From Takakia lepidozioides (lineage: Eukaryota > Plantae > Bryophyta): a DNA stretch of 64,000 bases. Location of the stretch: positions 59,396,001 through 59,460,000 of the forward strand of contig CM060731.1 of assembly GCA_030704615.1 (NCBI GenBank). The letters are read 5' to 3'. A program made the translations under genes and the position numbers. The notes under the pieces are model-generated. The model was given only the letters and a program-made list of their open reading frames with translations. It was not told the DNA's origin and did no database searches. This document shows, piece after piece, positions 17,864-63,772 of the stretch (its first letter is position 1; each line of letters begins with the position of its first letter).

Positions 17864-18464
17864 GGTACATCAGCTGTAGTCCTACTGAACACAACGTCAC
17901 CAGAGCACAAACCATCCCACAACCACAACTATGGATTGGCTGACCTCAAACCCACTCCCCTGCAGCGCAAAGTGCCAAAAACTGAAAAGGAGAGGGACAG
18001 AATGTCCTCATAACATGTAAGCCCATTCATTGGTGAAGAAACAGAATGTGGGCGGGTTCACATCAGTACCACATGAAACTTACCAGGAAACAGAACATCC
18101 ATCCGAGTTTTGCACATATCCAGTGGACATCTATTCACACAATCAGCAAATGGCTGTATGGCAGAGCCCAGCAATGGAGCCCCAAAAGGCCTAAAGACTC
18201 TCAATGTTGGTAAACACAGGTGCAGACACAATTCAATTGAAAGGATATTGCAGACCTAGCCTCATTGGAGTTATCAACGCATATAGCAAATGCGTACTCC
18301 AACGCACGTGCAATGACGTGACAAAGCAACATTTCCTTGACCTAAAAACTAGTCCCTCTGCACACAGTGGTAGACCCGAAGGTTTTTCCACGATGTCCTC
18401 CCCCATGACACAAATTGAAAACATGTTCAGGGATGTTTTCTGCCTAACTTCATTTTCTGCCCAA

Positions 18465-28031: not shown

Positions 28032-29157
28032 CATTTCATGTTTGTAGTCCTGTTGGGTGTGTAATGATACTCATAGAAGTGTGTATGATACTCACGTTAC
28101 CAGTTTTGAACATTTGGGCCATGACAGTTTAAGTGATGTCCGGCAACCATGTATGTTGGCATTTAGTCTTGCTCATATGCAGGTGTGCCGTGACGGTCTC
28201 TAATTTGAATGTAATATCACATTTCCTGACTTGTCGTCGTGTCCGTCCACCTTCTATGTGTATGTGTGATGGTCTTTGGTCTCCCTGTTGCCTCGTCTAT
28301 TTGGTTCATTAGCGTGATGTTGTGCATGCATCGTGGTCTGTGTTCTCAATCTCGCCCAGTATCATTGCTTCTCAATTCCCCCTGCATATGGGTGAACCAC
28401 TAAAACCAGTAGAATGCATCAGAACCATATTTTCAGCTTAGAATGCAGGTCAGTTGGAAACTCACACAAACCACTACAAGTGCTCATTTTTTGTGCTTTC
28501 CTACTGTAGTGCAACCAACTAGCACAGTGGCAGCGGAATTGGCCAAAGCAGTCCCGAGATGGCACAAGCACTCTGCGTCTTTCCACTAGCAGTCGTACCC
28601 GTCACTGCCATTGCGTGGGGACGACGCCACGCGTCGACCCACACACTCTCCACGTGGTCCCCGTGGATTCGTCTGCCGGAAGTTGTGCAGTTGACTTCGC
28701 CAGTGGCTGTTGCGACGTCACATGCAGCACTCCAAGTGATGTGGCCGACTGCGATGTGGCGTCTTGGGGCCGTGGCCACGCGGCAGCATTGCCGCTCGTC
28801 GCGGCGCCGCCACATCGGCATCCACGTCCGCATCCACGTCTGCGTCCATGTGTCACCGCGCCCCGGGTGAGTCAGTCCACTCATCCGGAGGGAAAAGTCA
28901 AAGTCAGCCCAAAAGGTCAGACACACGGGCGGCCCGCCTGGTTACGCCACGTGGTTCTTCAGCATTAATCGCATTAATCGCTGAGCAGTTGTTCGCGCGT
29001 CTGCAACCTTTACCACTCCAATCATTGGATGTCCAACCCAACTACCACGTCTGTTGTAACTAGTCTGTTGTAACTTCCAGTCGATCCCAGTTTTTTGACT
29101 TTTACGACTCAAAATGAGTCGTTACCCCAGTGGTAAATGACACGAATGCTTCTAGTG

Positions 29158-34200: not shown

Positions 34201-34336
34201 CAAGCAGCTGAGGAAGAAGTTTGATCCAAAGGGTTTGAAGCTACGGTTGGTTGGATATTGCAGTGACAGCAATGCATATAGGCTTTGGGATCCAATCAGG
34301 AGACAAATAAAGGTGAGCAGGGATATAATTTTCCAT

Positions 34337-36334
34337 AAGAGGACTCGCCAGCAAGGAGCAGCTGTTGTGACACCCGCCAAAACGAAGAAGCAGAAACAGC
34401 CTGTTCAGGAAGAGGGTGACGAAGAGGACTCCGATGGAGACTTTGCAACCAGCCCACCCCCCCAAATGCAGGCTGCCTCCCCTGTGCCCACCGTTGTCAC
34501 GAGAGGCACGAGAACTGGCTCGGCAAAGAAGGCACTCTTCAACCCCCCAGGGGGGCACCCTTTCGAGCCGGTGGAAATGAAGAGGCCGAAAGTGGCTCCC
34601 GAAACAGTAGTCCAGTGTGTAAATGAGAGTTTCTTGGCGGCTTTGGATGGACGGGCAGCCAAGTTGGCATACATGAAGACCATGGAGGGTCTGAAGGGCA
34701 GAGCACTGAAGAAGGCGACTGCCAAAGAGCCTTCCGACACCCCAGGATTTCAGAATATGGTCTCGTTCTTTGAGAGGGTGTGTGCAGACAAGGATTGTAG
34801 GAGGGGCGGAAATGCCACCGAGTGGTCTTGCGATATGATCATCTTGGATATTCCGGACGGAGAGCCTGTGGAAGGACTGCAAGCTTTGCCATCTTGGAAC
34901 AGGTACTCAGAGGACTTTTGGAAGAAAGGATTCGGGCTTGCCCGCATGGTGTTGGACGACAGAGACTGTGTGGTTGTCCTGGCGAGCAGAGGAAAAAACA
35001 CTCAGACAGGAATTGCGAAGTGGACCCGCAAGAGCGCCGTCCTGATTCTGAAAAAGAAGTGGACGTGCATCAACACACTGGGCCTTCGGTCGGAAGGGAA
35101 GAAGGTAATTACGACACTGGCACTCGTCCATTCATTTGCTTGGGTGTTTTCAAATGCGGTGCCGCATTCGGTTTCTAATCGTTCCCCCCTGTGTATGCAG
35201 ACGAAGCAGTTCGATGCATACTGCTTTGTGAAGGAGAACTCCACCTTTGCTTTCCGGAAGGAGGGAGGAAAGGTTGACCCGAACTGCGACCCCCTCGATT
35301 ACGACGTTCTGTTCAACAACGTTCCCAAGGAACTTCTCCCTCATAGCCTCACTTCAACGGAACCCTTGCGGTACTCACGGACTCGGAGCCCTGCCTTCAT
35401 TCAGACAATTATGGAGACATGCACAGACATGGAGGGCACAGTGCTGGACCTCATCTGTGGGACAGGTATGCAGAATCTTGTTCTATGTTGTTCTGCAAAT
35501 TCTCGTTAGGATGTAGTTCGCAACATCTGAAGCGCCATGTTGTAATGTGTGGATGGCATTGTAACAGGTGCCTCAATGTGGGCTGGGCGGTTTTCCGACC
35601 GGCACCTCTTTGCCTACGAGGAGGACTCATCCGTGTGGGGATCCCATCTGGAAGGGCTGCAACGGAATGTTAAGGCTCCCAAAAGAGCAGAAGTCTCCTC
35701 GGATTCGTCGGAGTCCGAGGAAGACACAGTGGACATTGATGCGGAGGAGAACCCGGAATACGAGTGAGTGCAAACATTGTAAGTTTGCAAAGCCTTCTGG
35801 GTCATTTTTGTCAAACGAATTTCCGGATTGTGGTTCTCAGTAGTCTCGATGATTGTCATGTGCAGGATTGCAGGGTCCGGGTCGAAACATGTAGGGCCTA
35901 CACTTCCTGCCAGGAAGAATGTCCCGTTCTTTGCGAGGGCCGACTTCATGACGAGCCCGGTGAGAGACTACTCCCTTCCTAGTTATGCAGCTAAACTCGC
36001 AAATACAGCGATTAGAAGAAGTGAGAATCCCAGTAAAGTAGAGCAGATTTTGGAGAGGGCTAGGGAGGACAGAAGGATAAGGAAAGAGTTGGCAGCAGCT
36101 CAGACAGGTAGATGGATACGAAAGTACATATGTGATTCAGCGGATGAGAGCGACGCAGACAGGGAGGAAGACGACCCAACAGAGGTGAGATGGACAGTTC
36201 CGCAAGGGGAAGATGGGATTTTCGAAAGCCTGGCCAACGAGCAGTCCGCTGGAGATGAGAAAGGCAATGAGGGAATGGAGGCGGAGCAGGACAGTCTAGA
36301 ACAGGATGAGGATTCGGATGATTTTCAAGATTAA
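34337..36334 (+). CDS. Spliced beta-class N4-cytosine/N6-adenine DNA methyltransferase-like gene (5'-truncated); exons to 35104, 35201-35465, 35568-35763, 35866-36334
   Basis: Motif IV-like CDMIILDIPD, then F-LARMVL----CVVVL, then RSPAFIQTIMETCTDMEGTVLDLICGTG|ASMWAGRFSDRHLFAYEED (motifs X-I-II). Three GT-AG introns of 96, 102 and 102 nt all keep the frame. Confidence 0.75.
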
Positions 36335-36470
36335 TAGAATTTTAATGAAGTCTCTGTAAATGTAAATTCTCTTCCAGAGTATATAAAGGAAATTCTCCCC
36401 GACATTCGTGACCCCTCTCCAGTGTGCATTCTAGCCACACAATCGCCCAAACCACGACGCTCCCAAAATC

Positions 36471-37193
36471 AGAAATGGGGCACCACATTTCCATGTACGA
36501 CCGAAATTTTGGCAACTCTAAAAACCTCTTTTGGAAATGCGGCACCGCATTTCCAAAACAGGGGAGGGACTAAATTTTCCATTTCATTGTTGGCATAGTA
36601 AAAAGTAATCGGCCGATTGGAAATGCGGTGCCGCATTTCCAAAATTTCCTTTGTCCACACGCCAGTTTTGGCCTCTCCCGCTCATTTCATGGATGCCACC
36701 ACGCTTACAGAGGTCGAACAAGGAGGTCGAAATTGCGGAATTGGAAATGCGGTGCCGCATTTCCATATTGGGGATGGTCGTTGTTCGAACTGTAGGCCCA
36801 TCAGCAAAAATTGGCACCGCATTCCATTGTAAAAAAAAAGTCGATGACGGACATGGAAATGCGGCGCCGCATTTCCAGAACGGACATCGCAATTTGTCCA
36901 TTTGCAGACCCTCTCACGGAAATGCGGCAACGCATTCCATCGCGCTGGTCGGAAATGTCACACTTTTCGAAGTGTTGGACGGAAATGCGGCACCGCATTC
37001 CCTTGTCCAAAAAGAAGTTTCCATTGCCAAGCTGGAAATGCGTCGCCGCATTTGCAATGCCAACCTCGTTGTCTGTCCAATTTATAGACCCGTGTTGGTA
37101 TTTCGTGTACATGGACGGAAATGATGCACCGCATTCCAATGTCCGACATGGAAATGCGGTGCCGCATTTCAATGTCCGAGGTTCTTCATCGTG
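36471..37193. repeat. Array of ~11 palindromic GGAAATGCGGNNCCGCATTTCC motifs ending at a putative CAC-type TIR
   Basis: Copies at 36471, 36533, 36619, 36743, 36807 (partial), 36855, 36918, 36981, 37034, 37117 and 37150. The array ends ...TTCTTCATCGTG (reverse complement CACGATGAAGAA), after which Copia-like sequence resumes. Confidence 0.8.
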
Positions 37194-39195
37194 GGAACCT
37201 TGGAGTTAGGGTTTTGGCTAGTGATCAACCCACTGAGGGTTTTTGTCAACAAAATCTTGAAGAGAAGGTTTTGGCTAACAGAGGGTTTCAGCCAACAAAA
37301 CCTGCACTTGAAAAAAGAAACCATGAAGGCAAAATTACCATAAATGAAGCACGATCAGAGCTGAGGCACCGTGAGATGAGAAAGACTGCATCAATCCCAA
37401 GTTGGGATCAATGGATCAAGAGATATTAGAACCAGCTCCATCAAAGACCGAGGGAGAATCTGTTGTGCCAGTGGGAGCTGATATCGCATCTGGGAACCTA
37501 TTTGTAAAGGGAAGGATAGATGGTGATGAAGTAAGAACAAGACCAGTGAGGAATAGAAGGCCACCAAACCATTATGGAGAGTGGTGGGAAACAACTGGAA
37601 GAAAAGATTCACAAGCTTGGATAGTTGTGGCAGTAGACATGGGGACCATGGAAGAACCTGCATCGTTTCAGGAGGCAACCCAGTCAGCCCATTGGATCGG
37701 GGCCATGAACGAAGAATTTTCATCGCTCCAAAAGAACAAGACATGGGAGCTAATACACCTGCCCCAAGACAGAAAGGCCATAAAATGCAAATGGGCATAC
37801 AAAACAAAGGTGAAGGCTGATGGTACAATGGCACGCTATAAAGCACGTCTTGTAGCAAAAGGATGTTCACAGATTGCTGGAATTGACTACGATGAGACAT
37901 TCTCACCTGTTGTCAAGTTTGATTCCATTCGAGTCATCCTAGCTATAGCTGTAGCGGAGGACATGGAGATTCATTCAGTTTGATGTGAAGACTGTCTTCC
38001 TTAATGGAGATCTTCACGAGGAGATTTACATGGAGAAGAAGGTGATGTGGAGAAGGGACAAGAAAATATGGTTTGTATCCTCAAGAAAAGTCTTTACGGG
38101 CTGAAGCAGGCATCAAGGGTGTGGATTTCATGAGTTCTTGGTGAGATATGAGCTCCAACCTAGCTCTGCATACCCTTGTGTTTATTATAACTCAAGGGGA
38201 TCTAAGATCATCACAACCATTTTTGTAGATGATGGACTTGTATGCGGTGTTGACCGAGCAACAGTCAGCTTACATACTGTGAGGCAGATTGCTATGTTGG
38301 ACTTCAAATCACTCGGGACAGACCTCTATGCAGGATTTTTCTCAGTCAAACGACAACCATCGTGGAGCAGTTTGGCTTGCAAGATGCCTGCCCTGTGTCC
38401 GTTCATGCAGACCCTAATTCCCAGCTAAGACCTTTCTTGGATCTTATTGATGATATCCCGGATGAAGTGGAGAGCGTGTTGTATCAGAAGGCAGTTGGAA
38501 GTCTCATGTTTGCCATGATAGGCACTTGGCCTGACATTCGATAGGCCATGAGCATTGTGGCAAAATTTAGTGCCAAGCCAAAACGAGACTATTGGGAGGC
38601 TGTCAAGCGTGTGTTCAAGTATCTCAAAGGTACCATGCACTATGGTCTGTGCTTCAGTGGAAGTGATTCTTTAAATCAACTTCTCGGATTTTGTGACTCT
38701 AACTATGCAGGGGATCTCGATACTAGAAAATCCAGAAGTGGTTATGTTTTCATCCTAAATGGTGGGGCAATAGGGTGGACCAGCCAACGCAATGCACATC
38801 AACTTCCACGACTGAGGCTGAATATGTACATCATGCATTGCTACCAAGGAAGCGGTGTGGCTCCGCATGCTCTTACATGACACTGGTTTTGGGAGGGAAA
38901 GACAACGGCTCTGTGCAGCGATAATATGGGCTCCATAAGATTGGTACATAACCCGGAGTTTCATAAGCGCATCAAACATATCGATGTCCAGTATCACTAC
39001 ACTCGAGATAAGCAAGTAGAGAAGGTCATTGACATCAAGTATGTCAGCACGCATGAGCAAATGACAGATATTCTTACAAAGGCTCTAGTTGCTGAGAAGT
39101 TTAACAAGATCCGCAATGCATGTGGTATAATGGCATGTGGTTTTGGCTGATGAAACTGCTTGTGATTCTGTAAGGGTTGATTTGATAAGTGGGAG

Positions 39196-42479: not shown

Positions 42480-42995
42480 CTTTGGTACGATGTATATGTA
42501 TACCAAATGTGAGAGCATCTTGGATGCAAAGGCAATGTTTGACCATATGGCGTGCCAAACAAGTTGTAGTATACCGTGTCTTGGAGTGGTGTGATTGTAG
42601 GATATGCACAACATGGGTGTGGATGGAGGCTTTGGATACCAATGAGCAAATGACGTGGGAAGGGGTGAACACTGACCAGGTGATGTTCGTTTGTGTTTAT
42701 AATGCTTGTGTGAGCCTGGTAGCCCTGGAAATGGGTAAAGTAGTCCATGGTGACATTATCAAAGTTGGAATTCATGTACTTGAATGCGCGGGAAGGGATA
42801 AAGCCAAACCAGATCATATTTTTGGTGTTTGTGTGTGCAAGCTTGGCAGCCCTGGGATGGGCAAAGGTAATGTGGTCCATGGTGAAATAATCAAAGCTGG
42901 AACCGTACCAGATATCATTCTGAACAACATTACCCTCCTAGACATGTATACTAAATGCAGGAGCATCAAGGATGCAAGGGCGTGTTTGACAATGT
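42480..42995 (+). pseudogene. Degenerate PLS PPR fragment
   Basis: EALDTNEQM-WEGV--DQVMFVCVYNAC-SL-ALEMGKVVHGDI and LLDMYTKCRSIKDA, with frameshifts. Confidence 0.75.
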
Positions 42996-43426
42996 ATACT
43001 TGAGTGTTCAAGCGCCGGCAGATGGTTTTCAAAGCTTCCCCACGTGTGCTCATCCCCTCTCTAAACGGCATTAGCCCTTACGTTGTCGCTACACGGCAAG
43101 GTGCTGCCAGATGGTTCTCGAACCTTAGGCCTACACACATGTCTTTCTCCTATGGCTGCATCCATCCCTCCACTATACCCCAGGTCTCCCTCTCTATTGG
43201 TAATTTGGTTGTTCCCACCGGCTCTACGTCCATCAACCATCCTTAGTTGAATCTTGCTTACACTTTCCTTCCTATTTTTTTGCACCCTCGTTTCTCGCCC
43301 ATAGCCCCTTTTGCTCGTTCCATTCCCTCATTTTGTGATTCTTCAATCATCATCTAATCCTCAGAGCCCACACAAACTTGAGGGGCTTATTAACAATATT
43401 AAAAACAATATAAAATATAACGTAGG

Positions 43427-43773
43427 TGTCAAGTTAAATAAGCACAGTGTGAAAACAGCTAGAATAAAACTAGTTATTTGTATTTAACACTTGGATTTAG
43501 GTCAAGTGTTAAATCAGGTGTCAAGTTTAGTTTGACACCTGGTCTGTCTTATCTTCACGAGAGCGGCAGTCGCGCAGCTCATCTCTCTCGAGTTGAGCCT
43601 GCGCGACCGAGCTCCTTCATCGATTCAGATATGAGTGTGCTTATGATGGGAGTGTAGGTTGTTGTGGGGTGGAGTCCCCATAGCTTGGGGTGCCCCTGGC
43701 TCGACTTCTATTTCTAAGAGTGATGGTTTGGTTTTCATGCTTTGCATCGTGTGTGTCCTTAGCTTTCTTATCA
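43427..43773 (+). repeat. Left terminal repeat segment A (near-identical to 54896-55232)
   Basis: TGTCAAGTTAAATAAGCACAG...GCTTTCTTATCA; only a few small indels versus the right copy. Confidence 0.95.
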
Positions 43774-43791
43774 CTCGAGAGAGATGAGCTG
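43773..43791 (+). promoter_or_regulatory. Self-priming PBS complementary to LTR positions 43575-43593
   Basis: ACTCGAGAGAGATGAGCTG is the exact reverse complement of CAGCTCATCTCTCTCGAGT. No tRNA-type TGG PBS is present. Confidence 0.8.
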
Positions 43792-44786
43792 TCTAGTTTT
43801 CTAGTGCTAAGCTAGATATGATGTTTTCTGTTTTTAAGCACTATTATAATATAGCTTGGTCACAGGGAGCCTGCAGTCAGACTAGCTATGTGTGCCGAGT
43901 GGAGCAGTACAAGAAGGCGGAAACCATTTGAAGTGTTGCTGCAACAGTTCAAAGCCAACAATAATCAGCCTGGGAGACAAGGAGGCCTGCCGTGCTCAGT
44001 TTATGAGGGCACTCGTGCTGCAGCGCGAGAAAGACCATTGGTCGGAATCCCCCGTTTGGGCTGGCTGGGTTTGATTTATATTGGCGACTTGGAGGCGCTC
44101 CAGAGTTTCGTTGGCAGTGGGTGTTGAGCCGTTCAGGCTATTCGTGTGTGGCTTGAACCTCACCAGCCTGCCTAGCACCTGTGTGAGGGGGCTTGTTACA
44201 CCACTGCCTATATATACTGGGATTCTTGCAGGGCCTGGCTTGTACACGTTCATGATTTCAAACTCGTCCCGTGGTGGTGTAAGTGGATCTCTCAGCCTTT
44301 GCGAAGGTAGACTGCGCTGCATGGTTGGTCGCTGATACAAATTTGGCTTCAGACTGCTGCTTCTGTTGGGATTGAGGCTCCTGGACTCTAACCAGAGGAG
44401 CCTCAACGGGAAACGGATCAGGAAAGTGCAAAGGTAGTAGAGTCGTCGTTTTAACTTCCTGGGGTTGTGCATGTCCCTTGTGGAGACGCTGGCAGAATTG
44501 AAACTTAACACACAAGCTAGGTTCAAGCGGGTACGTGCCTGTGAGCAGTGCTGCGGGGCCCTTATGCCGAGTTATTCACGCTGGTGGTGTTCCTACTAGT
44601 AGGGAGTTATTCTAGCTAACTTCGAGCTATAATGCCTCAGTCCCGTCATGCTCATTATGTCTATCATAGTGCACCGTGGCCTTACGTTGTCACAGGAAGA
44701 CAAATCTAGCTGTGAACCCTGGACCTCGCAAAGTTCTCACACCCTACCAGGAGTGGAACAAAGAAAGTGCTCGAGAGATCCCCATT

Positions 44787-44965
44787 GAGAAATTGAAGGT
44801 TATCGGTTCCCTGGACAACTGGGCGCAAGAGAATTTGCTACCCCTTTGAAGCCCGTAGACAAGTGCTGGCAACCCCAGGACTTCCTTCCTGAAGCTTCAT
44901 CGGAAAGTTTCTTTGATGAGGTAACGGAGCTCCGAGCCCGGGCCAGGGAACTGCCTGATGACTAT
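44787..44965 (+). pseudogene. Captured stearoyl-ACP desaturase (FAB2/SSI2 family) fragment inside the Gypsy leader
   Basis: [59 protein letters not shown], with one frameshift. Confidence 0.85.
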
Positions 44966-46175
44966 GTGATGTGGCGTTACAGAGAGGCCAGATACTGGGC
45001 CCACTTTGGTACCCTTGGGTAATTGATAAGGTGATAGGAGCTGACCTTCTCGCCCATCAGGTCTTGTAGCAGGGAAGAAGGGCTGAAGGAACTCGTCATG
45101 CTCTAATTGGCCAATGCTCCAAGTGTGTGGAAATCAGTGTTGCAGATCACACAGATTACTCAACTGCACGATTTTGGAGGAACAAATGACCTACAGATAC
45201 GGCACACAAAAGGTCACATCAACAGATCAAGGCTGAGAGTGGATTAAGTGTGAGTTTCGGAGATATATGAGTGATTCAGGAGGAAACAAGAGCAGTCGGC
45301 CCCATACTGGTCACAGAGCAACGGACGGATTGATGCGTGATCAATCATTGAAGTCAAGCATCAAAGTAATCAGCGGAAGAAAGGGTGGAGAGTGTAACAG
45401 AGACCTCAAGACATGGTCTGGCAGTCGAGTTTGAAGTGCAGGCTGCCGTAATCTCCCTCCATGCGAGCTGGAACTTACGGGAAACGATCTGAGAGTTAGC
45501 AAGTATGATGACGGACACCTGAACAAATGCAGCTGAATGACGAAGCGGCAATGCGGTCCATCATGGAGGAGAAGCCGATCGGAGCTCAACAAATCGAGCT
45601 GCTCCGTGGTAATTGGCGAGGCGACCCCAAAACAACAGAGAACTACATGAACATGTTCGGAACTGTGTAGATACCTGGGAACGGTTCTTAATGCGGGAAC
45701 GTTTTGGTGTTAAAAAAAAAAAAAAAAACTTGATCTAATTAAATGATAAAGAGTCTGGTTGGTCATACTTTGTCCAATGAGCTCCGTTGACTCAGTTTTT
45801 GAGGGATAGCTGCAGAAAGGGGAAATCTACCTATCTAGACCTGGTTTCTGTTTTTGGGACTCTGCTAAAAATCTATGGAATTTTAGAGTGTGAGTGTGCC
45901 ATGAAAGATCCACAATCCTGTTTCTAGAACCTGTGCTGGTCTATATGAGAGACAAATCTGGGATGTACTCCTTGTATGGCTGGGGGAAATGAGGACGTAA
46001 TTGAAGGGCAGGTCTTCTCTTAGCCTGTGCACCAAAGGGGACAAGATTTATGTTTCCCAAGGAAACTCAGACTGATTTGAGTGGAGAACAGTTGGACGAG
46101 TTGATTGATTGGGGAGTCAGGCATTAGCAGTAGACAACAGACTGCTTAGTTGGCATTGAGGGCCTCAATATCGCC

Positions 46176-46724
46176 TTGGACAGTCAGAACTCTGTTGGAG
46201 CCAGCAGTTCTGCAGCTGTAGGTGAAATACCAAAGTGGGTGAAAGCTAGGCTTGGAACACAGCCAAAGACAGCCCCGGGGACCAAGGTGTTCAGCCACAA
46301 GGCCGTGGTGTACTGGAGCAGAGGAGCAGGAGCTACACAAGTTTGTGCAATCAGACACGGTTGCAGCCGGATACGCTCTGCACAGGGCAACCACGAGCGG
46401 GGGTTCATCAGCAATGACATGTTTGTTGTGCGTGAAGGAGATGCAGTCATTCGCAATGAGGACACCCGCAACCGTCTCAAAGCTTTCGAGTTGAGAGACT
46501 ATCAGACCCTACCTTTGTTTTCTTTAGTGTTCAGTGAGCGGGAGATAGGGGAGTATTGCTTTGTCTCTACCTGGCAGAAAGAGGAGGAGGAGGGTTGGTT
46601 AGAGCGAGCTACTGTAGCTTGGGACAAGGTTAGTGGCAGGTTTCTGGACATAGATATACCTCCTACACCTTACCATCAAGCAGAGCGAGGCACTTTGAGA
46701 GAAGTCTGGAAGTTGATAGCATAG
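46176..46724 (+). CDS. Extra ORF of unknown function upstream of gag
   Basis: 182-codon open frame with protein-like composition; the frame extends upstream through stop codons. No motif recognised. Confidence 0.4.
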   Translation: MDSQNSVGASSSAAVGEIPKWVKARLGTQPKTAPGTKVFSHKAVVYWSRGAGATQVCAIRHGCSRIRSAQGNHERGFISNDMFVVREGDAVIRNEDTRNRLKAFELRDYQTLPLFSLVFSEREIGEYCFVSTWQKEEEEGWLERATVAWDKVSGRFLDIDIPPTPYHQAERGTLREVWKLIA

Positions 46725-47240
46725 ATCAGGATTAGATCTTGCTTGGGCGGGCTTCTATTCTTCCCCTCCATCTCTGTACTATTTTCATTACCTTGTACTT
46801 GTAGTTGCCAAAGCCTCTCTTGGTGGAGGCCAGTCAGTCCGGGGTTTTGGGCTGGGATATTCTGCAGGATCAGCATTGCAGCTGGATTTTGGTGTGGGGG
46901 TGTTGATTTTGATTTCTTGTGTTTGGATCCCCCCAACACCTGCATGCTTGACTGTGCGCCATGTTGGTTTTGTGTGGGCGCTTGCTTTCATAGGGATTAG
47001 GCCGGATTTGATCACCGGTCAATCCTAGAGTATGCTGTCGGTGGTGAGGCTGGAGTGATGACCAGCAAGACCACCAGTGTTTCTTCTATGGTGAGGCTGG
47101 GTTGATGACCAGCCAACCATAGGAGTTCTTGCGGTGGATGCAGGTGCAGGTGCCCTGAGCCATTGGGATATGACCCTTAAACTGCAACAGGTGCCCACCC
47201 GTGTCACTATTAGATTAGTACTAGAGCCTTATAGTGTCAC

Positions 47241-49750
47241 GTGGAGGAGGTGCACATTGTGAGTGTCATTACGGAGTTACCCAAGGGTTTTGAGGGGAGT
47301 ACGGCTACAGGCAGTAACAGTGAGAGTGGGTTCACAAGACGAGGTATTCGGTTCAGACCACCTTCACCGCCACCCTCAATTACTGTAGAGTCAGACACAG
47401 ACTCGGAGGCTTCATCAACAGGTGTGCACTTTCATTCGCCATTGTTGTGGGACGACATGGAGGAGATGTATGGAGCTACCAAGGGGCCTCGTAGGTACTC
47501 TGGAGCTGTGGGCACAATCGAGTTGGATGACTTTATCCAGGAGTTCGACAGCTGGTGTGATTTGCAGCAGATGCGCAATCCACAGCTATTCACCCCATTC
47601 ATGGCGTGGAAGGGACTGTTCCAGCATTTGGAAGGCCCGCCTATGGACGATTACCACGAGTTCAGGCGAGGACATGAAGCAGAGATTGAGGAGTGGAGGA
47701 TGTATTGGTCACCTGACTACGTCTCCCATTACTCGAGGCACGACGCGACCAGTAGCTGCATCAGTACCAATAGCTCCCACTGCCAGCACTAGTAGTGGAG
47801 CAAGTAGTGCTGGTACTTCTGCAGGTGGTACCAGTTCAAAAGGTGCTACTACTCCTCCTGCCACGACTACAACACATGTGCCTAGATTCAACCCGGTGGT
47901 GGAGTTCTTCCAGGAGTTGCGGAGGAGGAACTACCAAGGTGTACGGACAGAGAAGCTGCGAAGTTTGCAAGACTTCCAGCGCAAACCCAGTGAGAGCCTG
48001 CGAGAGCGTACACTCGTATGAGGCGCTTGATAAGTGTGACCCAAGGGGTTACTGAAGCTCAGGCAATCCAGTTTTGGTATGGAATTCTGGACAAGGAGCT
48101 CAAGAGAAGGGTGCGAGATGCAACCCTGTTACAAGCAGCCCAACCCACATTAGCAGATGTGTTTCTGCTGGCTGAGCGGATTGAGCTCAACATGGTGGAG
48201 GAGCGAGTTGTTACAATTGGATTTGGCAAGGACATGCCTGTACGGGGCACAGCTGTCAGCCCACAGGCACAAGGGACTGCCCAACAGCGTGGTCAGGGGG
48301 GCAAGGTTGCCCAGCCCAAGTTCCATGGAGCTTACAGGGGACCTCAGGTGCAGAGGCCCGTGGGCATTTTGCAGGCCAACAGCAACCAGGGGTGATATGT
48401 TGGACATGTGGAGGACCCCATGTCAAAAGAGATTGCCCAGAGAGTGGCAGAAGGCCGGCACAAGCACAGCCTGCACAGTTGCAGTGTGGGCATTGTGGCA
48501 AGTATGGGCATGGAGATGCCCAGTGTTATGACTTGCATCCTGAGTTGCGCCCAGGCCAGTTCCAAGGGAACAATGGTGGCCGGGGGCGAGGTGGACCAGC
48601 CCAAAGAGGACGAGGTGGTCGGGCACGAGGTGCAGGCCAAGGGCAAGCTCCACATGGCCAAGGACGCGGAGGTCAGGGTGTTGACCAAGGCATGGCCAAT
48701 CGGCTTCAGCAGCTAGAGCAGAGGCTCGCTGCCATGGCTATAGCTCAGGCGGTACCGGCTCCCAGGCGGGATGGTCCACCTCCTGCTCCTGAGGGAGGAG
48801 ATATGGGAGGCATGGGATTCATGTGCGGAGCAGCACTACCACTAGAGCAGGTGGAGTCTGCTGCAGCCGTGACTCGAGGAGCAGCACGAGTTCCTGAGCC
48901 ACGAGGTGCAGAGGTGGAGTTGGATCCACAACGTGGGGAGGCAAGCCGTCAGGCGAGGCTCCTCAGTCATTCACCTTGGCGGAGACAGTGTCAACGCCAT
49001 CCATGGCACCTAGTTCTCGCCCGACTGTTACCGAGGCGGAGGTTACTATGCCATTGGGGAGAGCTACACGTGCAGCACTGACACCTGCTACCAAGGCTAG
49101 TGCAGCCGGTGTGTTATTGGGGGCAGCCACCTCTGTGTGTCAAGCCCCACTGTTCTCGGCAACCATGATTGCGACGCCGGGGGTGAGACCAGCTGCAGTG
49201 TTCAGACTAGCAGCAACACTCTGTGAGAGTGGGGAGGTCACTTCATCTTCTGCGGAGTTAGTGGAAGGTGTAGTGGCAGAGGGATCCTCGGATTTGAGGG
49301 TCAAGACTGCCACGGCTGCGCCATGGCAAGCTGCAGCTGCCAGGTTGACGGAGCTGCCAGCTAGGCCAGCCTTTGAGCGCGCCATGGTGACACCTGGAGT
49401 TGTCTTGTTAGACAACCAGGGAGGCATTTTCACTTTGAGTGGACCGGCAGGCAAGAAGTACCGGCCACTGCGGGTCTTGTTGGACTCAGGAGCTCAGCCA
49501 CTGATGTTGGGCAGAGCTGCTATTGCAGGTTTGGGCCTCATGGAGGCGGATATGGAGCCTTGTCCTTTCCAGATACAGACATCTCTGGGAGGATCAGAGC
49601 AGGCTCGGCATGACACGGCATCAGTTGGCTATTAGACTGCAGCCGGATCATCCTGTAGATGGCTCAGTGATGCGAGCCAAGGCCATTGTGACAGACGCGG
49701 TCTCTTACGATGTCCTCGTTGGTGGGGCAGTGTTATACCCCATGGGCTTC
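47241..49750 (+). CDS. Gypsy gag (two zinc knuckles) and aspartic protease, frameshifted
   Basis: ELDDFIQEFDSWC, CWTCGGPHVKRDC, CGHCGKYGHGDAQC, RVLLDSGAQP, YDVLVG. Confidence 0.85.
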
Positions 49751-50192
49751 ACCCTGGATTTGGGAGGAGTCAGCATCCTACAGGCCTGGATGGCAGTCAG
49801 GGGATGGTCGCCGTGCACAGCTCCCTGTGACATTCATTGGGGGTATTGCAGCTGCCCAGCGGGGCAAGATGCCAACACTAGCCGCCTTCACAGCTGCAGT
49901 TAGTTGGCCTGGAGAGTTGCTGGAAGGCAATGCCCATGCAGAGGATGTGCCACCTCCAGCAGAGCAGGATGACATGCATGGTACGGCGGAGTTGCCTGCC
50001 ATGGTTGCTCACACTCCGTTGTGGGGTACGAGCAAGGATTTGCAGCAAGCTGCTGATGGACGGGTGCAACAAGCTTGGGTAGAAGCTTTTGTACCGTCAG
50101 GAGAGGAGGAGAGTGCGGTGATTGCACCAGGGCCACCTCAGTTGTCGCCATTGGACACCACACCTCTTGTGTGGCAGCGGCCGGATGAAGGC

Positions 50193-51135
50193 ATTTGCCT
50201 TCTGGACTTGTTTGGCGGGATCAGCACCGGATTGGCTGCTGTGCTACAGGCAGGTGTGCGGGTAAGGCGTTACCTGTATGTGGAGAGGGATGAGACTGCA
50301 CGACGCGTCTCACTGCGCCATGTTGCTCAGTTGGTACAGCAGTACCCTGACTTGTTGCCTGTGTCTGCAGTTCGTGGATACCAACAAGCCTTGCCAGCAG
50401 ACATTTCCTTGTTGGGGGGCGCAAGATTTGGAGCAGGTTGGCTCCATTGATCTGTAGTGGCAGGTTGGCCCTGCCAAGGGCATTCATCAGCCGGGCATGG
50501 CAATGGATTGCGAGACTCGAGGACGGGTCTGTTTTGGGAGATGGTGCGGATTTTGCGCTGCTTGCAGCTTCATCAAGCTGTATCTCCAGCATACATCTTG
50601 GAGAATGTGCCACTGATGGGTGATTCTCGGGCCAGGGTGATGGCCAGTGTGCATCAAGTCCGGTCGTGGCTTGGGTCAGCAGTATTGCTGGATGCAGCTG
50701 CAGTGGGGTCACGGGCTCATCGTCCACGACTATGGTGGACTAACTTGATGCCACCCGCACTGCTCAAGCGTGCATTTGATGGGGTGCAGCGGCCAGCACA
50801 CCTCACCGTGGATGGCATTTTGGACACAGGAAGGCAGTCTCAACGTGTGAGACACGATGACCGTTCGCCTTTGGCAGTGGTCAACAGGGTGGGTCAACCA
50901 CGAGCAGCATTACCTACACTGCTCAGCTTCCCAGGATCCCATGCTTTTCGGGATGGTGGACCTGGCCTCCTGTGGGATGCTCAGTTGCAGCAGTTAGTGG
51001 AGCCTAATGCCGACGAGCGAGAGCGGGCTATGGGGTTTTCCACTGGGACCACGGCGGTGCCTTCTCTTTCTGAGGCATCACGTCGTCAGGTGTTGGGGCA
51101 AGCAATGGATCTCAATTGCTTGACCTGGATTGTCA
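50193..51135 (+). CDS. DNMT3-like C5-cytosine DNA methyltransferase domain within pol (one frameshift near 50420)
   Basis: Motif I LLDLFGGISTG, II YLYVERD, IV AGWPCQGHS, V LFWEMVRIL, VI YILENV, VIII RAHRPRLWWTNL, IX ERERAMGF, X RRQVLGQAM. Confidence 0.93.
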
Positions 51136-51639
51136 GCTTGGCTATGGCTGAGCAACGTAGAGTGCGGAGTGCACTTCCCTTGACGGTCTCTCTGCCTACC
51201 GAGACGGTACAGGCAGCGAGTGGGGGCGAGCCGGTGAGGACCACGAGGTGTAGACATCCATGGCACATGTGGGAGGTGCTCGAGGTCAGAGGGAGTTGGC
51301 AGCGAAGGCAGCTGTGATGGATGAGGTTGGGGATTTCTTCTCGGGATGAGGAGGTTCTCAATGATGAGATGATGGGCAGGATGAGGCCTTGTCATTGACT
51401 GAGCAGGAAGGGGGTACTGCTCAAGAGGTTGCAGCATAGCAACCACGGGACGCGTCCTCTACCTCTAAGCCCACTGGACTTAAGGTTGCAGTTACGGAGG
51501 ACAATTGGGAGCCTGACATTGGACCCATTGTCACCGGAGGAGAGAGACGACGTATACGGCGGTTCCTGAGGGCTTACAGGAATTGCTTTGCCTTCAGTTT
51601 GAAGGACTTGGGAGCACTGAAGGGTCAAGAGATCCGTAT

Positions 51640-54300
51640 TGAGTTGGCCACTGACGCCAATCTTTCGGAGACCCTATAGATACAGTGACATGGAGAGGTC
51701 TTTGATTCAGATGAGGACTCAAGATCTCTGGGAGGCAGGTTTGGTGGAGCTCTCTGGTGGAGATGCTTCAGCCACAGTGATGCCAGCTAAGAAGGATGTC
51801 TATGGCAATTGGACGGAGAGACGTATGTGCGGTGATTACCGGCCTGTAAATCGTCAGACCAAGTCCGATAGGTATGCCATGCCAACACCAGAGGAGATCT
51901 TTGATGCCATTGGGCATTCCAAGGTCTTTAGCACGTTGGATTTACGATCCGGATATCACCAGTTGCCGATCAAGGAGGCGGATAAGCAAAAGACGGCATT
52001 CTGGGGGATCAATGAGCACGGGAAGGATTGCCTATACCAGTGGCGGTTCTTACCATTTGGGCTTAAAAACGCTCCCGCTGAGTTTCAAAGAGTCATGGAC
52101 AGGATTCTAGCAGGGGTGGAGTTTGCTCGGTGCTACATAGATGACATCATCATCTTTAGTGCTACGGTGGAGGAGCATGAGAGACACCTTCAGGGGGTAT
52201 TTGAGCGCTTGAGGACGCACGGATGAAGTTACATCCGGGCAAGTGCAAGTTTTTCCACAACCAGATTGAGTATCTGGGTCACATGATATATCCTGGAGGA
52301 TTGGGGGTACAGCAGACTAAGGTAGAGTCCATTGCACAGGTTCCACGCCCCACGGATGTGAGCCGAGTTCGAGCTTTCATGGGGGGTTAGCTATTACAGG
52401 ATTTAGTGCCATTGCAAAGGCTCTAACCAAGCTGACCAAGGTGGACCAGGAGTGGCAGTGGGAAGATGAGCAAGAACAAGCTTTTCAAGAGCTCAAGGCG
52501 AGGTTGACCTCGGCGCCCATCTTGAGACGACCTATCAGGGGGCGTCCTTTTCAGCTGCATACAGATTGGAGCATGCTGGGGCTTGGAGCGGTGCTCACAC
52601 AGGTGGATGATGAGGGAAGAGAGTTCGTAGTGGCTTATGCTAGCCGCTCGAACAATGCTGCAGAGTCTAAGTATAGCTCATATGAGGGAGAATGCTTAGC
52701 TGCAGTGTGGGCCGTGGCACACTTCAGGTGCTATCTATACGGCAATCTCTTCACCCTTGTCACGGATCACCAACCACTCAAGTGGTTGATGGAGTCAGAC
52801 AAGCTTACGGGGAAGCTTGCACGGTGGGCACTCATCCTTCAAGAGTATGACTTTCAGGTGGTGCATCGACCGGGTTTGGTCAATCGAAATGCAGATGGGT
52901 TGAGTCGCAATCCATGCACGAGCCAGCAGGATGACACTGGAGCTCGGTGGCATGGTGTGAGACGGACGAGGAGATGGTGCCCGGATGGCATGCATCTGCA
53001 TTTCTGTGTATCTTGGCAGCGGAAGGCCAGGTTGGACCTACAACAGGGATGACTGTAGATCAAGTGTCTGAGGACCTGAGGCCAGCAATGAGCAGGGTGG
53101 CGCCAAAGATATACATGAGGATTCAGTTGTGTTGGACTACCTCCGCAGTGGAGACACGCAGCCACTATGACTGCCAAGGAGAGGGATCGGATCCTACAAC
53201 GAGCCAAGAGGTTCAGGTGGGAGGGGACACACCTGCTCCGAGTGTGGGAGGATGGTCGAGTGAGGATTGTGCCTCACCCAACACAGCGGGCACGGTTAGT
53301 GCGGCATGCCCATGAGGAGTTGGGGCATTTTGGGGTGCGACGCACTCATAGTCTACTGCAGGGGCAGTATTGGTGGCGTGGTATGCACACAGAGGTGCAA
53401 CAATTTGTGGCTAGGTGCATGGTGTGTGACAGGGTGCGTGCTTCATTCAACGCCCCTACTCCACAATTGCACCCTCTTCCGATCATGGGATTGGGCTACA
53501 GGTGGAGTCTTGACTTCGCAGGGCCGTTGCCACTGACCATGCGCCACAACAAGTACGTGTTGGTGATGGTGGAGCACTTCTCCAAGTGGATTGAATTGGT
53601 TCCATTGCCTGATAAGGCTAGTGAGGGAGCTGCGTATGCATTCCTGGATTGTGTGCTTAGCCGATTCGGTGCTCCAGCTGAGGTACTCACGGACCAAGGG
53701 AGAGAGTTCTTGGGGGAGTTTCAGGCTTTGTGTGACAAGGCCTTGATAGACCACCGCACCACTTCTCGGATCATCCTGAAGCCGATGGCTTGGCAGAGAG
53801 AGTTGTTCAGACAGTAAAGAGGGGTTTGCGCAAGTATGGCTTGCAGAAGGGACACCTAGGAGATTGGGACCTTCAGTTACCCTGGTTAGCCATGGGCTAC
53901 AGGTTCAGCAAGCAAGCATCACTTGCCTCCTTCTCACCATACTTTCTTCTCTTTGGCCGAGAGCCGGATTTGCCTACATCCATTCGCAGAGAAGCTGCTA
54001 CAGTTCTTAACCTTGACGATCCGGACGTGTGGGCACGTGCATGTGAGCAGCGTGCAGAGTTGTTCAAGAGAGTCATGCCCATGGCTTTCGAGAACCTTGC
54101 CATTGCACAACACCGTGATACGTTGAGGTATGCTACCATACGTGGTGGGGCTATCGTCCTGGGGTTCGGAGATTCAACCCTGGTGACTATGTCTATCTGC
54201 AGCAGACTGCTCCTACGACCCTGGATGTGACTGCAGGACGTGTTATTTTGAGGGTTCGAGAGGTCTTGCCCTCAGGCGTCTTGGTCTTGGAGGGTCGGGA
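51640..54300 (+). CDS. Gypsy RT, RNase H and DDE integrase (frameshifted)
   Basis: RMCGDYRPVN, LDLRSGYHQ, PFGLKNAP, YIDDII; LHTDWS, EGECLA, TDHQPL, ADGLSR; HEELGH...CMVC, WSLDFAGP, LTDQGREF. Confidence 0.93.
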
Positions 54301-54407
54301 TGGCATCAACTTGGAAGGACCATGTGCGTAATTGTGCGCCATGTCACCTTCCGAATGTCGATGGCAGGATTGACCCAAACCTGGCAGTGGTATCTGCAGG
54401 TTTGAGG

Positions 54408-54549
54408 TGCATGTTGTGTGGGTGCTAAAGGGGCAGCCACCATGCTGGTATGTGATCGGTGCTCTAGAGGTTGGCATATGGGATGCTTGACTCCACCTCT
54501 TGAGATGGTTCCGGATGGGGATTGGTTATGTCCACATTGCATTGGATAG
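54408..54549 (+). CDS. PHD finger (C4HC3) at the integrase C-terminus
   Basis: CMLC(G/fs)AKGAATMLVCDRCSRGWHMGCLTPPLEMVPDGDWLCPHCIG*. Confidence 0.88.
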
Positions 54550-54795
54550 TGGGAGTGGATACAACCATGGAGGCTAACAAGAAACGCAAGGCCCAGCTAC
54601 TAGGAGACCTTGAACACACGAGATCTGGCTCAAGTTCATAGATTGCAAGACGGCGACTAACGATGGGGCTACTCTTGTACCCGGCCTCTTGGTTGATAGA
54701 GTTTGAGCACGATAAGACAGTGATAGAGGACTTAGTACGGCTGTGGCTATTACATCTTGTAGCTATCTGGAGGTAGAGGGACCTATCCACCAGCT

Positions 54796-55320
54796 AGGGG
54801 GGCGATTGTGCAGACTACTTTATTGTGCATATATGTGTGTGTGTGGTTTGGACAGCGATGTAGTTGTGTGTAGCGATATGTATGCGCACGACAGCTGTCA
54901 AGTTAAATAAGCACAGTGTGAAAACAGCTAGAATAAAACTAGTTATTTGTATTTAACACTTGGATTTAGGTCAAGTGTTAAATCAGGTGTCAAGTTTAGT
55001 TTGACACCGTCTTATCTTCACGAGAGCGGCAGTCGCGCAGCTCATCTCTCTCGAGTTGAGCCTGCGCGACCGAGCTCCTTCATCGTTTAGATGAGTGTGC
55101 TTATGATGGGAGTGTAGGTTGTTGTGGGGTGGAGTCCCCATAGCTTGGGGTGCCCCTGGCTCGACTTCTATTTCTAAGAGTGATGGTTTGGTTTTCATGC
55201 TTTGCATCGTGTGTGTCCTTAGCTTTCTTATCGATTGTGCTAGACTACTTTATTGTGCATATATGTGTGGTGTGGTTTGGACAACGATGTAGTTGTGTAG
55301 CGATATGTATGCGCACGACA
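54796..55320 (+). repeat. PPT (54796-54806), B (54807-54893), GC, A (54896-55232), GAT, B' (55236-55320)
   Basis: AGGGGGGCGAT|TGTGCAGAC...; B and B' are near-identical; A matches the left terminal repeat. Confidence 0.9.
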
Positions 55321-56282
55321 TAGGCATATGATATGATGGTACTTTCGTCGGAATTATCCAAAATATAAACAAGAGACAAAAATTCAACATTAAGAGTTTT
55401 GACATTTCATTAGCTATTACCATTATCATATTTATACTATCATTAAATATTAATAAATCAAAATGTGCTTACCACAAATCAAAGTAATTTTTGGAAGTGG
55501 AATAACATTTACATTAAATATGTGAACTAACAAAAGACATAAAAAAGAGCATATTTGACAAAAATAATTTTTTTATTAATTTATTATTTTTTTTTGGGCA
55601 ATTTGGGCAGCTTCAAGAATGTACATTGGTGACTGGCCGAAACGTGGCGACGATGACGGGGTAGAGATGATTTTTTTTTAAATATTTATTAGAAAATTCT
55701 CCGGGCAGCTTTAAACAAATGACGGCGATGACAAGGCTGATGATGATGTGGTGACAATGATAATGATAACGTGGCAATATGACATCCTATCCACACTAAA
55801 AATAGTCTCCGACCTTCAGTCGTTACTAGAATTAAATCAAATGTTAAATCATATAAGATTTAAAAAAAAAATCTAAGAATCTAATAAAGACTATTGATAC
55901 ATGGATGAAGATAACATGGTCATTTGATGTACATTGTTTGACTGTCACATCAACCCTCAATAAATCATCTACAAGCATTAAAACTTGATGTAGTACGGTA
56001 AAGATTGTAGTTGAAGACACAGTCGTTTGATAATCCATATAGGTGCTCCTTTTATCAATGGAACCGTTCTGTCATTCATAATGCCTGTGTGCATCGATGA
56101 ACACAAGATGAAGGTGGTTAGGGGATGGATCAGGAAAAGCTCGATGAGGAAGAAGGGTCACGCTGAACGGAATGACGGAGGGAGATGTATGGGCAAGAAT
56201 CAACCACATTCCCTCTTTTGTAGCGAAATATTTTAATTTTGGCCTAGATTCAATTAGTGGGACATAGATACTGCAAGTGGTA

Positions 56283-61172: not shown

Positions 61173-61691
61173 GGGATAGATACTTGTCTTTGACCTTAGA
61201 TAGTTAGATACTTAAGAAGAAGATACCTAAGAAGATACCTAAGAAGATAGGTACTTGTCTTGACTTAATTGGAAATATTATCACGAGCATGCTCAGTCAC
61301 AAAGTCTTGCCACGAAGGCAGGGCCAATACAAGGGCGCCAAGCAGGAGATGGGTGAGAGATTTTATCGCCAACACCCTTGTTCATCCAGGTGGCCAAGGC
61401 GGTTCAACGGTGGCCGTGCACAAAGACAAGTGCAGCGTCGCTTTGGCTGCCACGCGTGAGCTAAAAAATGGGGGTAACCCGCACGCGGTGAGGAAGTTGA
61501 AGAGAGAGATATGGACAGCAGCTTCGTCAGGAATCTACAGCGCAGGAAGATATAAGGGAGATTAAGAATTTGTGTAGAGAGAGGAGGAATTTGGAGATGA
61601 TATCCCAGAACTGATCGTACAAGGAAACATTATTCGCAACGCAGTGGAGGAAGGGCTTGGTGATCATAACGCCCGAGGAAGAGAGCTAGTT

Positions 61692-63772
61692 ATGGCAAGA
61701 GGAAACATTGTGACGGTCGAGGAGCAAGTGCGACCTGGCGTGACTCATGAGAGGGGGTGGATTTCGCAAAGTGAAGAGTCTGAAGTAAATGAGCGAGACA
61801 GCGATCGAGCCGATGACGGCGGGCTGGTTGACTTACCTGATGGTTGTATCGGTCTAATTGCAATGCGCCTGAGTCCCAGGGACGTGGCCAGGGGAGCATG
61901 TGTCTGTCATGCTTTTCGAGATACTTTTCAGTCAGACCTTGTTTGGGAGCATCTGCTTCCAGAATCTTACCCTAAGATTTTGGCACTTGCCTCTGACGTT
62001 CCTCAGAGCTTTTCGAGTAAGCGCGATATATGTGAGTTTCTTTCTAGGCAAGTTCTTCTTCGGGATGGCACACAGGTGAGAGATGAGTCCGACTCTTCTC
62101 CGCTCCTTTTGTTGTTTTGTTTTCGTACCAGATTGTTTTATGACATGACAAGGTTTGCGAGTGATTTAACCACGAAGCTAGAGTCATTGTTGTGATGTAT
62201 TGGAAAGATTTGAAAGCATGATGTTCGACAAATCCTCCACGGATGCAAATCGTTATCTTTCTTAGATATATTCTAGACCTGGATTCCGGAATAGTTCATA
62301 ACCATATGAAAACTAAGGAACCAGTTTCTTTGTAGATCAAGATGAAATCTGTGTCACGTATGGTGCATTTTACTTCTTGAAAGAAATTAGTACACATCTG
62401 AGAAGCTCCAGTTTTGCCTTGTGGAGGCAGTGGCTTCGTGACAAATTTATGTAGTGGGAACTACATACCTATATATTTATGAATGGTAGGTATTTCCAAG
62501 TAATACGTAGCTGAAACGATCAACGGTAGGTCATATTCCAGAGTTGAGACTGCAAGAGATTCTGAAAGTTAGAAGTTTTTACTTCGAGAAGTATCGTCGG
62601 CTGACTTGACTATTAAATCACTCGATGTGTATCCCACTCCGTTTATATGTTTTGATGCATGGAATGTTGTATTGAACAGGCATACTGGTTGGATAAGGCC
62701 ACAGGAGCAGTATGCTATAGTGTGTCAGCAAGGGGCCTGAATATTGTTTGGGGTGATGATGATCAATATTGGATGTGGCTCCCCCGAAAGGGCTCGAGGT
62801 ACTTCCATTCCAATTATGAAGTGTTGTGATGTGAACATTTCCAATCTGGTTTCACCTTCGGTCTCAGTAATATGTTTTTTTCAGTCTTAAAACTATCAGC
62901 ACACCCGGGCATGACAAAGAGACTCTAATTATAAGTATTTGGTTCTTGTGTCTAGGGAGCATGAGGCAGTGAAGTTTGGAAGGAATTTGAAAAAGTATGT
63001 GCGATGTAAATTGTTATACTGATGCTGCTTATACAAGTTGATGGATTGAGGTATATTGAGCAGAACTTTGTGAGAAATCATGTCACTTGGTCACTTGCCT
63101 TTCTGCACCCCTCTCACCTACTGGGCATTATCCTAAGGCGAGTAATTGCATGCAGCTCAAACTGTTTGGGCCGTGTGCAGATGGCCAGAGGTAGCATGTT
63201 TGAAGCAGGTGTGCTGGTTTGAAGTTACCGGCGAGTTGAACTGTCTCCTTCCACCGGGATCTTACACTCTATCATTTCGACTTCAGTTGAACGAACGCAA
63301 GGACTCCAGTGGCGATCATGCATTCGGTTGGGCAAGTGCACCCACCGAATTTTCTCTTTCTTTGAGTGATGGCACACAGGCTTCCAGCAACCACCGTTTC
63401 TTGAGCAATCGGCTTGAAGATGCCACGCTTCAAAATCAGCTACAAAATATAACATCTGTTCGAGTGGTGGAAGACGACTGGATGGAATACGATGTGGGAG
63501 AGTTTGTTGTAGAAGAAGGGGGAAAAAGTGTAGATCTGAGGTTCTCAATGATAGAGATCGAGAGAGGACAGTGGAAAAGTGGGTTGAACTTGGATGGTGT
63601 TGTGGTTCGCCCGACTTCCCTGACGCACACGGTTGGTTACAAACCGACTTTGGCTGAGCTGGGGGAGAGTGCAACAAGAGCGACAACGGATTTTGCAGGA
63701 TTCTTTCGTGGAAGGAGGATGCTGCCCAGAGCAGGCCGTCCTCGCTTGCCTGATGTTAATGGTAGGAATTGA
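61692..63772 (+). CDS. F-box/PP2-A (phloem protein 2-like) protein; exons 61692-62075, 62680-62798, 63181-63772
   Basis: F-box LVDLPDGCIGLIA...DVARGACVCHAF...SDLVWEHLLP; PP2 domain YWLDKATG...SARGLNIVWGDD..YW, LKQVCWFEV, WMEYDVGEF, WKSGLNLDGV. Confidence 0.9.

Follow-up and report, generated by a model that had tools for sequence, protein, structure and literature searches.

The locus analysed here raises the question of whether a retrotransposon can join a reader of chromatin to a writer of DNA methylation. The window (the whole 64,000-nt stretch of Takakia lepidozioides DNA that was analysed) holds an element for which the first-pass annotation had described an integrase ending in a PHD finger and a DNMT3-like DNA methyltransferase, and had proposed that the two may select a chromatin state and methylate it. 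The reading favoured by the present analysis, to which a probability of about 55% is given, is that the PHD finger would tether integration to nucleosomes via the unmodified H3 N-terminus and that the DNMT would work apart, on the element's own cDNA.

The element and its coding regions

The element spans positions 43427-55320, with the layout A1-coding-B1-A2-B2, and is highly repeated, as judged by summed contig depth. Pfam searches returned gypsy-type domains (including rve and H2C2), and the coding order (gag-PR-RT-RNase H-integrase, with a DD35E core) is that of Ty3/gypsy elements; the best PDB match was the Ty3 Gag-Pol (E=2.7e-145). The catalytic residues of the integrase (D247, D307, E342) were invariant across 40 aligned relatives. 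A predicted integrase model (pLDDT 70) combined with a fold search confirmed a retroviral-type integrase and nothing beyond. The tyrosine recombinase typical of the DIRS order had no Pfam match in the window or in the relatives scanned, and no relatives of the element were found among the viral contigs searched.

The coding region lies on the forward strand. Gag and aspartic protease (47450-49760, approximate limits; LLDSGA near 49479) are broken by frameshifts and are followed by an intronless DNMT3-like C5 cytosine methyltransferase domain with PC, ENV and RxR motifs (50187-51161; one frame break near 50453). An amber stop and its CAA CCA context (51437-51445) separate this gag-PR-DNMT part from a second ORF (RT-RH-IN-PHD), which comprises reverse transcriptase and RNase H (51440-53118; several frame breaks), the integrase (53119-54407) and the C4HC3 PHD finger that closes it (54408-54549; frame break near 54422). 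The integrase consists of an H2C2 zinc finger, a DDE core, a long helix, a beta-rich C-terminal domain and a linker; further frame breaks between its core and the finger were located near 53769, 54146 and 54307.

Across 349 positions, repeats A1 and A2 show just 3 substitutions and 9 gap letters between them, and one contig covers 51066-53215 with 6 substitutions and 29 gap letters relative to the window. The copy is therefore probably young, and its many breaks would be mostly assembly errors or private to the copy. The nearest named relatives are liverwort sequences (83% integrase identity, 75% DNMT identity).

A PHD finger in the place of a chromodomain

In a three-frame translation, the start of the finger (CMLC, first Cys at 54408) was found in one frame and the remainder (CDRC, His, Cys, Trp and CPHC, with the stop at 54547-54549) in another, so that all eight C4HC3 ligands, together with the Trp ahead of the final Cys pair, can be read once the single frame break is bridged. 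The earlier description of a complete finger, with one frameshift, at the end of pol was thereby borne out. The second piece of the finger matched Pfam PF00628, the profile that had been suggested as a check (E=5.7e-11; 42.7 bits, cut-off 24), and a pattern for the second half of the finger had a single occurrence in the window and none in 100 shuffled windows. The integrase frame in the window stops two residues past the PHD. At the break inside the finger, the contigs of all four runs (4/4) differ in length from the window, and the break therefore belongs to this copy or this assembly.

The PHD follows the H2C2 zinc finger, the DDE core and the beta-rich C-terminal domain, which is the place of the chromodomain in chromoviruses. 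Chromodomain matches were absent from the 27 relatives scanned (0 matches).

PF00628 was detected in the same protein as the integrase in 65 of the 90 longer integrase relatives; the named PHD-bearing relatives were Calypogeia, Klebsormidium, Volvox and Chlamydomonas eustigma, and the Riccia and Sphagnum matches stop short of the finger region. Among 189 proteins, 79 reach at least 200 residues past the integrase core and 76 of these carry the finger. The three exceptions comprise two divergent Cys-rich fingers (P0023, P0187) and one protein that runs out of frame (P0173). At the DNA level, the finger was found in 66 of 80 loci, which were sampled from few samples and include duplicates (L005/L007, L021/L026, L038/L041 and L060/L061); of the other 14, 11 end too early, two align into the finger region and one is truncated. 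In intact relatives the integrase thus ends in an in-frame PHD finger instead of a chromodomain, and the concern raised with the original proposal, that the finger might be out of frame in intact copies, can be put aside. The family ranges from green algae (including chlorophytes) to mosses and liverworts, and the PHD finger is a second, near-universal type of putative integrase reader in green plants besides the chromodomain, with a testable prediction on its target.

In an algal-like clade (L057:4083-4406, L042, L043, L040, L045, L068 and L076; P0040, P0073), about 90-490 residues extend beyond the PHD. Sequence and fold searches assigned no clear family to this extension. Its first part is predicted to adopt a small SH3/Tudor-like barrel fold, with an atlas lead to the PTM_DIR17 Tudor at 0.82 and best fold matches at Z of 5.0 or below, Tudor domains among them; as a lead only, the predicted barrel is a possible second reader.

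The DNMT3-like domain and its separation from the finger

Pfam PF00145 matched positions 50451-51314 (E=3.8e-10). The DNMT domain of an intact relative had DNMT3A/B/C as its best PDB matches (E=1.5e-11), with bacterial enzymes far poorer, and the element does carry a DNMT3-like domain, as had been annotated. In 103 DNMT domains of the family, the PC, ENV and RxR motifs were retained in 80, 83 and 94, respectively. The co-occurrence of DNMT and PHD across related elements, proposed earlier as a check, was found in 35 of 38 informative loci; the exceptions are L056, where a displaced DNMT was detected by tblastn, and L002 and L074, which are without the whole 5' part.

The two domains are separated in the window by the sequence TAG CAA CCA (at 51437, between DNMT and RT). 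A stop followed by CAR, 204-237 nt before RT, was present in 10 of 35 loci (TAG in eight, TAA in two) as well as in the window, and the exact CARYYA was read in 3 of these 11 stop contexts (window, L013 and L028), the other eight differing at the sixth letter. In L013, a single amber stop is all that lies between a 1369-aa open frame (gag-PR-DNMT) and one of 1047 aa (RT-RH-IN-PHD). Trees were quick or FastTree builds without a firm root (the RT tree was a quick build); in the tree of 93 DNMT domains, 44 of the 46 DNMTs in the window's nearest-relative clade (support 91) end without RT, some of them possibly cut by contig ends. In plant viruses, CARYYA after a stop promotes readthrough (PMC4132726), and the stop before RT is likely to be leaky, judging by its sequence context. 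The position of this stop bears on a question left open in the 2018 description of KnitGypsy-Dnmt3 (see below), the purpose of transposon DNMTs.

Other arrangements were found in the family. There is no stop between DNMT and RT in a second moss-type subfamily (L015, L019, L023 and kin), and DNMT and RT share one frame in P0023 and P0029. In one clade (support 91 in the RT tree and 98 in the DNMT tree), the DNMT lies between RNase H and integrase; nested inside it are P0046 and L057, in which the PHD was kept and the DNMT lost. L057 is a whole element on a circularly assembled contig, with one weak 39-residue tblastn match to DNMT. The PHD is thus fixed to the integrase, and the DNMT is movable and dispensable.

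These arrangements weigh on the proposal that the PHD guides the DNMT to a particular chromatin state for methylation, in the way that the ADD domain serves animal DNMT3. DNMT3A/B are the best PDB matches of the family's catalytic domain. However, the family DNMT is without ADD or PWWP, the finger is on another predicted protein product, and the finger itself is a canonical PHD with 0 ADD matches in Pfam or PDB. In the window subfamily, DNMT and PHD are kept apart by the conserved stop and by RT, RNase H and integrase, which together span about 1,000 residues; the second DNMT position and the retention of the PHD where the DNMT was lost (L057, P0046) also speak against ADD-type coupling, which was not upheld. 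The coupling reading can draw on the co-occurrence and motif retention given above, on the clade with the DNMT just before the integrase in the same frame, where the two might stay fused, and on the consideration that DNMT and PHD, even as separate proteins, could share one integration complex; on balance it is considered unlikely. A DNMT made together with Gag fits cDNA methylation better than the marking of target sites, as in the favoured reading, in which the DNMT would act apart from the finger. No sign of self-methylation was obtained from CpG depletion, which was 0.50 for the element, 0.56-0.64 for the other transposons of the window and 0.47 for the DNMT-less L057.

Further observations were made on the coding regions of relatives. 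A G-patch domain is present between DNMT and integrase in some (L040:6118-11835; P0068, P0172). In L040 (6118-6179) the RT is split over two long overlapping open frames with no stops around, which may reflect either programmed frameshifting or an error in sequencing. In Marchantia polymorpha, many "hypothetical proteins" (P0093-P0103, P0123, P0129, P0185) are gag-PR-DNMT frames of the family, and P0185 is a gene model that fuses DNMT, integrase and PHD pieces; because several of these copies were submitted as hypothetical genes of the host, tallies of plant DNA methyltransferases may be distorted.

Predicted ligand of the finger

The best 60 of 79 PDB matches to the finger were mostly PHF21A, CHD4, PHF12, ATXR5, KDM5 PHD1, AIRE, UHRF1, BAZ2, DPF and KAT6, and the ING, BPTF and TAF3 fingers were not among these 60. 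Most of the fingers matched read unmodified H3. In readers of H3K4me3, the cage Trp sits two positions before the His; in AIRE and BHC80, an acidic residue before the first Cys binds unmethylated K4.

Residues were counted in 75 complete family fingers (four incomplete fingers were left out). The position two before the His was Gly in 73, Ala in two and Trp in none (0/75), so that the cage Trp of the ING, BPTF and TAF3 type is missing, and methyl-lysine reading depends on a conserved Trp cage (PMC3214078, seen in part). Asp or Glu follows the third Cys in 74/75, Met stands three positions before the third Cys in 64/75, and PxGx precedes the last aromatic residue in 66/75. The matching Asp and Met of UHRF1 are tied to H3R2, the Asp binding it (PMC3214078). 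The finger therefore has the residues of unmodified-H3 readers of the UHRF1, AIRE and BHC80 type, namely the Asp for H3R2 and a PxGxW pocket for H3A1; several sources (PMC3214078 among them), in the parts available, describe UHRF1, AIRE, BHC80 and KDM5 as readers of unmodified H3. From these residues, the family finger is likely to bind the free H3 N-terminus.

An acidic residue within four positions before the first Cys occurs in 41/75 relatives and is absent from the window finger, which therefore may not sense K4 methylation. This difference from the well-kept H3R2-binding position would suit a general nucleosome tether that tolerates K4 methylation, as the UHRF1 PHD does, and that raises integration efficiency with no choice of chromatin state. 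UHRF1 reads H3 in this way (PMC3214078), its fingers are among the PDB matches, and the insertion site in the window sits among gene-like frames; this reading is nevertheless regarded as quite unlikely, next to the favoured one of a tether to unmodified H3. It is very unlikely that the finger binds another host protein or a nucleic acid, or aids integrase assembly on the internal junction described below, instead of histones. Such a role could draw on the near-universal presence of the finger in the family and on the family's likewise unusual ends, but the residues lining the H3 groove in solved fingers are its most conserved non-ligand positions.

Repeats, priming and ends

The element is flanked by the target-site duplication TAGG (43423-43426 on the left, 55321-55324 on the right) and its ends are TGTC and GACA, both as in Ty3/gypsy elements. 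Among 10 full elements, the 4-bp duplications were exact in seven, one letter off in two and missing in one; L019 is without a target duplication and that of L025 is atypical. Two complete LTRs are not present. On the forward strand, repeat A1 (43427-43772) starts with TGTC, a polypurine tract (54796-54802) abuts repeat B1 (54803-54893, ending in GACA) and not A2, and repeats A2 (54896-55232) and B2 (55232-55320, ending in GACA) complete the right end, giving A-coding-B-A-B.

A likely self-priming site directly follows A1: its 19 nt (43773-43791, forward strand) pair fully with 43575-43593, inside A1. Against shuffled sequences, such self-pairing stood out (at most 8/200) at 13 of 18 loci, which represent three different sequences; in the other five it was not significant. 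A TATA-like box precedes the pairing partner by about 20-30 nt in most other loci; no such box is visible in the window.

At the B1/A2 boundary, two integrase end motifs stand head to head across a 2-nt spacer, forming the palindromic junction GACA-GC-TGTC (54890-54899). The B/A spacer measured 2 nt in 30 of 32 junctions and, on inspection by eye, in one further junction, which leaves one unassigned; six distant loci (L013, L042, L045, L057, L068 and L076) have the junction motif as well. The A2/B2 joint shows mostly 0-3 nt of variation between copies, with few larger changes, as if made anew each time. In 13 of 14 copies, B2 resembled its own B1 more than it did the average of the others.

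With the self-priming site and the purine tract placed as they are, reverse transcription would give a (B-A)-coding-(B-A) cDNA, whose ends are unlike the integrated ends. It is inferred from these sequences that the cDNA ends are joined and that the integrase then cleaves at the internal CA-NN-TG junction. Such an end structure implies an integrase that does not use the ends made by reverse transcription, a departure from the standard LTR cycle. A-coding-B forms are common (L009, L025, L033, L071 and 13 single-B loci), and L009 and L071 keep exact 4-bp duplications; since B-by-B recombination or a collapsed assembly would look alike, these copies do not prove that circles exist. From a symmetric circle, A-B-A-coding-B copies would also be expected, and their absence among 80 loci (0 found) is not explained by the circle model.

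In circle junctions of the IS3 family, a DDE enzyme cuts two facing end motifs across a short spacer. The foamy-virus integrase, likewise a DDE enzyme, cuts palindromic LTR-LTR junctions with facing end motifs (PMC1180852, in the part available). The window element differs from both systems: it passes on its junction as an internal part of each copy, and the ends that are cut would not be those produced by reverse transcription.

Proposed mechanism

The favoured reading can be set out as a series of steps, as follows. The finger would bind A1 and R2 of H3 and, having no H3K4me3 cage, would bias insertion away from active promoters. Occasional readthrough of the stop would yield the DNMT at Gag-like levels and the integrase-PHD at lower levels, the protease separating them, and the DNMT would methylate new cDNA inside the particle. 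Reverse transcription would be primed by self-pairing after A1, with plus-strand priming at the purine tract in front of B1, giving (B-A)-coding-(B-A). The cDNA ends would then be joined and the internal CA-NN-TG junction cut by the integrase, resulting in an A-coding-B-A-B insert with a 4-bp duplication.

A wider picture, of an old gypsy-like lineage from algae to liverworts and mosses that combines self-priming, joined cDNA ends, integrase reopening at an inherited palindrome, a Gag-level DNMT3 that pre-methylates cDNA, and landing by an unmodified-H3 PHD, is put forward as a tentative possibility. If true, the joined cDNA of this lineage would resemble an insertion-sequence circle. The end mechanism and the readthrough split would be the most surprising parts to specialists. 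With copies in Marchantia polymorpha, the PHD target, the role of the DNMT and the end mechanism are testable in a model plant.

Comparison with known elements

Most of the cited sources were seen in part, and the statements below refer to the parts available unless specified otherwise. The closest described element is KnitGypsy-Dnmt3 of Klebsormidium nitens (de Mendoza et al. 2018, PMC5890265). It shares gypsy domains, an intronless DNMT3-like domain and a DIRS-like A-coding-B-A-B layout with the window element, and differs in that its DNMT is inside the Pol frame, whereas that of the window element lies before the stop (PMC5890265). Its DNMT was inactive in yeast, a result that the authors call inconclusive, and no end mechanism is given in the available text. 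The paper text and three supplement files do not mention a PHD, and the figures may show one (PMC5890265). The K. nitens integrase P0035 likewise closes with a PHD; it shares 78% identity with P0031, itself 77% identical to DNMT-RT proteins, and two K. nitens integrases match the window integrase at 58% and 53% identity. The window element most likely belongs to the KnitGypsy-Dnmt3 family.

PHD fingers are encoded by many retrotransposons (PMC6673714). REM1 is cited as a PHD-bearing algal gypsy element (PMC9940879; PMC6673714, in part), and a PHD in the gypsy Gag-Pol of Gypsy-7a_cRei was proposed to lessen harmful insertions (PMC9940879). The left LTR of Gypsy-7a_cRei lacks the 8 bp with which the right one ends, a difference reminiscent of the window's split repeats; no DNMT is listed for it, and it is likened to the window element by description only (PMC9940879). 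PHD and Chromo were the commonest transposon fusions in a survey (bioRxiv 10.1101/2021.11.30.470311), and a PHD occurs on a Ginger1 transposase (PMC2836005).

Chromoviruses resemble the window element in having a chromatin-reader domain at the integrase C-terminus and in self-priming, as in Tcn1 and Tf1/Sushi; Tf1-type self-priming occurs in moss elements (PMC6317226). In contrast to them, the window element has a PHD for the chromodomain, split repeats and a DNMT; the available text of this chromovirus survey mentions neither a PHD nor a methyltransferase (PMC6317226). In EpiLTRs, too, a single LTR element combines a reader domain with a cytosine methyltransferase, but the reader is a chromodomain, the enzyme is DNMT4-related and an adenine methylase is present, and their authors call them distinct from streptophyte Gypsy-DNMT3 elements (bioRxiv 10.64898/2026.05.21.726589). 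The window element would work in a chromovirus-like manner, with a PHD replacing the chromodomain, and by domain content is neither a chromovirus nor an analogue of the ADD-coupled DNMT3.

Nothing on this gypsy-PHD-DNMT family was found in the available parts of bioRxiv 10.1101/363937, PMC7466625 and PMC2836005. In the literature searched, no paper was found on the PHD with DNMT3 in these elements, on how their ends are made or on bryophyte copies; such material may exist in Repbase, figures, bioRxiv supplements, the Craig thesis or subscription journals. Gypsy elements with a DNMT3, gypsy elements with a PHD and elements with a chromodomain plus a DNMT are each in print, and the PHD-DNMT pairing is less new than the first-pass annotation implied.

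Neighbouring features of the window

About 2 kb of the 5' leader of the element (43836-45855) has a depth far below that of the rest. This insert is flanked by copies of an 11-nt repeat (43825 and 45845), has a poly(A) run near 45712 and contains a stearoyl-ACP desaturase fragment (44789-45019; FA_desaturase_2, E=2.8e-13); it is likely a captured piece of a host transcript that travels with this copy or with a small subfamily.

Further transposons lie to the left of the element: an RT frame (18195-19955) and a copia-type element (33324-38428), with a CACTA-type transposase set (21579-25666) between them. Repeats with periods of about 300 nt and 636 nt occupy 29052-31146 and 42576-42975, with an inverted relative just left of the element; they resemble PPR-gene remnants by eye and gave no Pfam match. 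About 6 kb to the right of the element, the F-box and PP2 domains of a host gene were located at 61578-63772.
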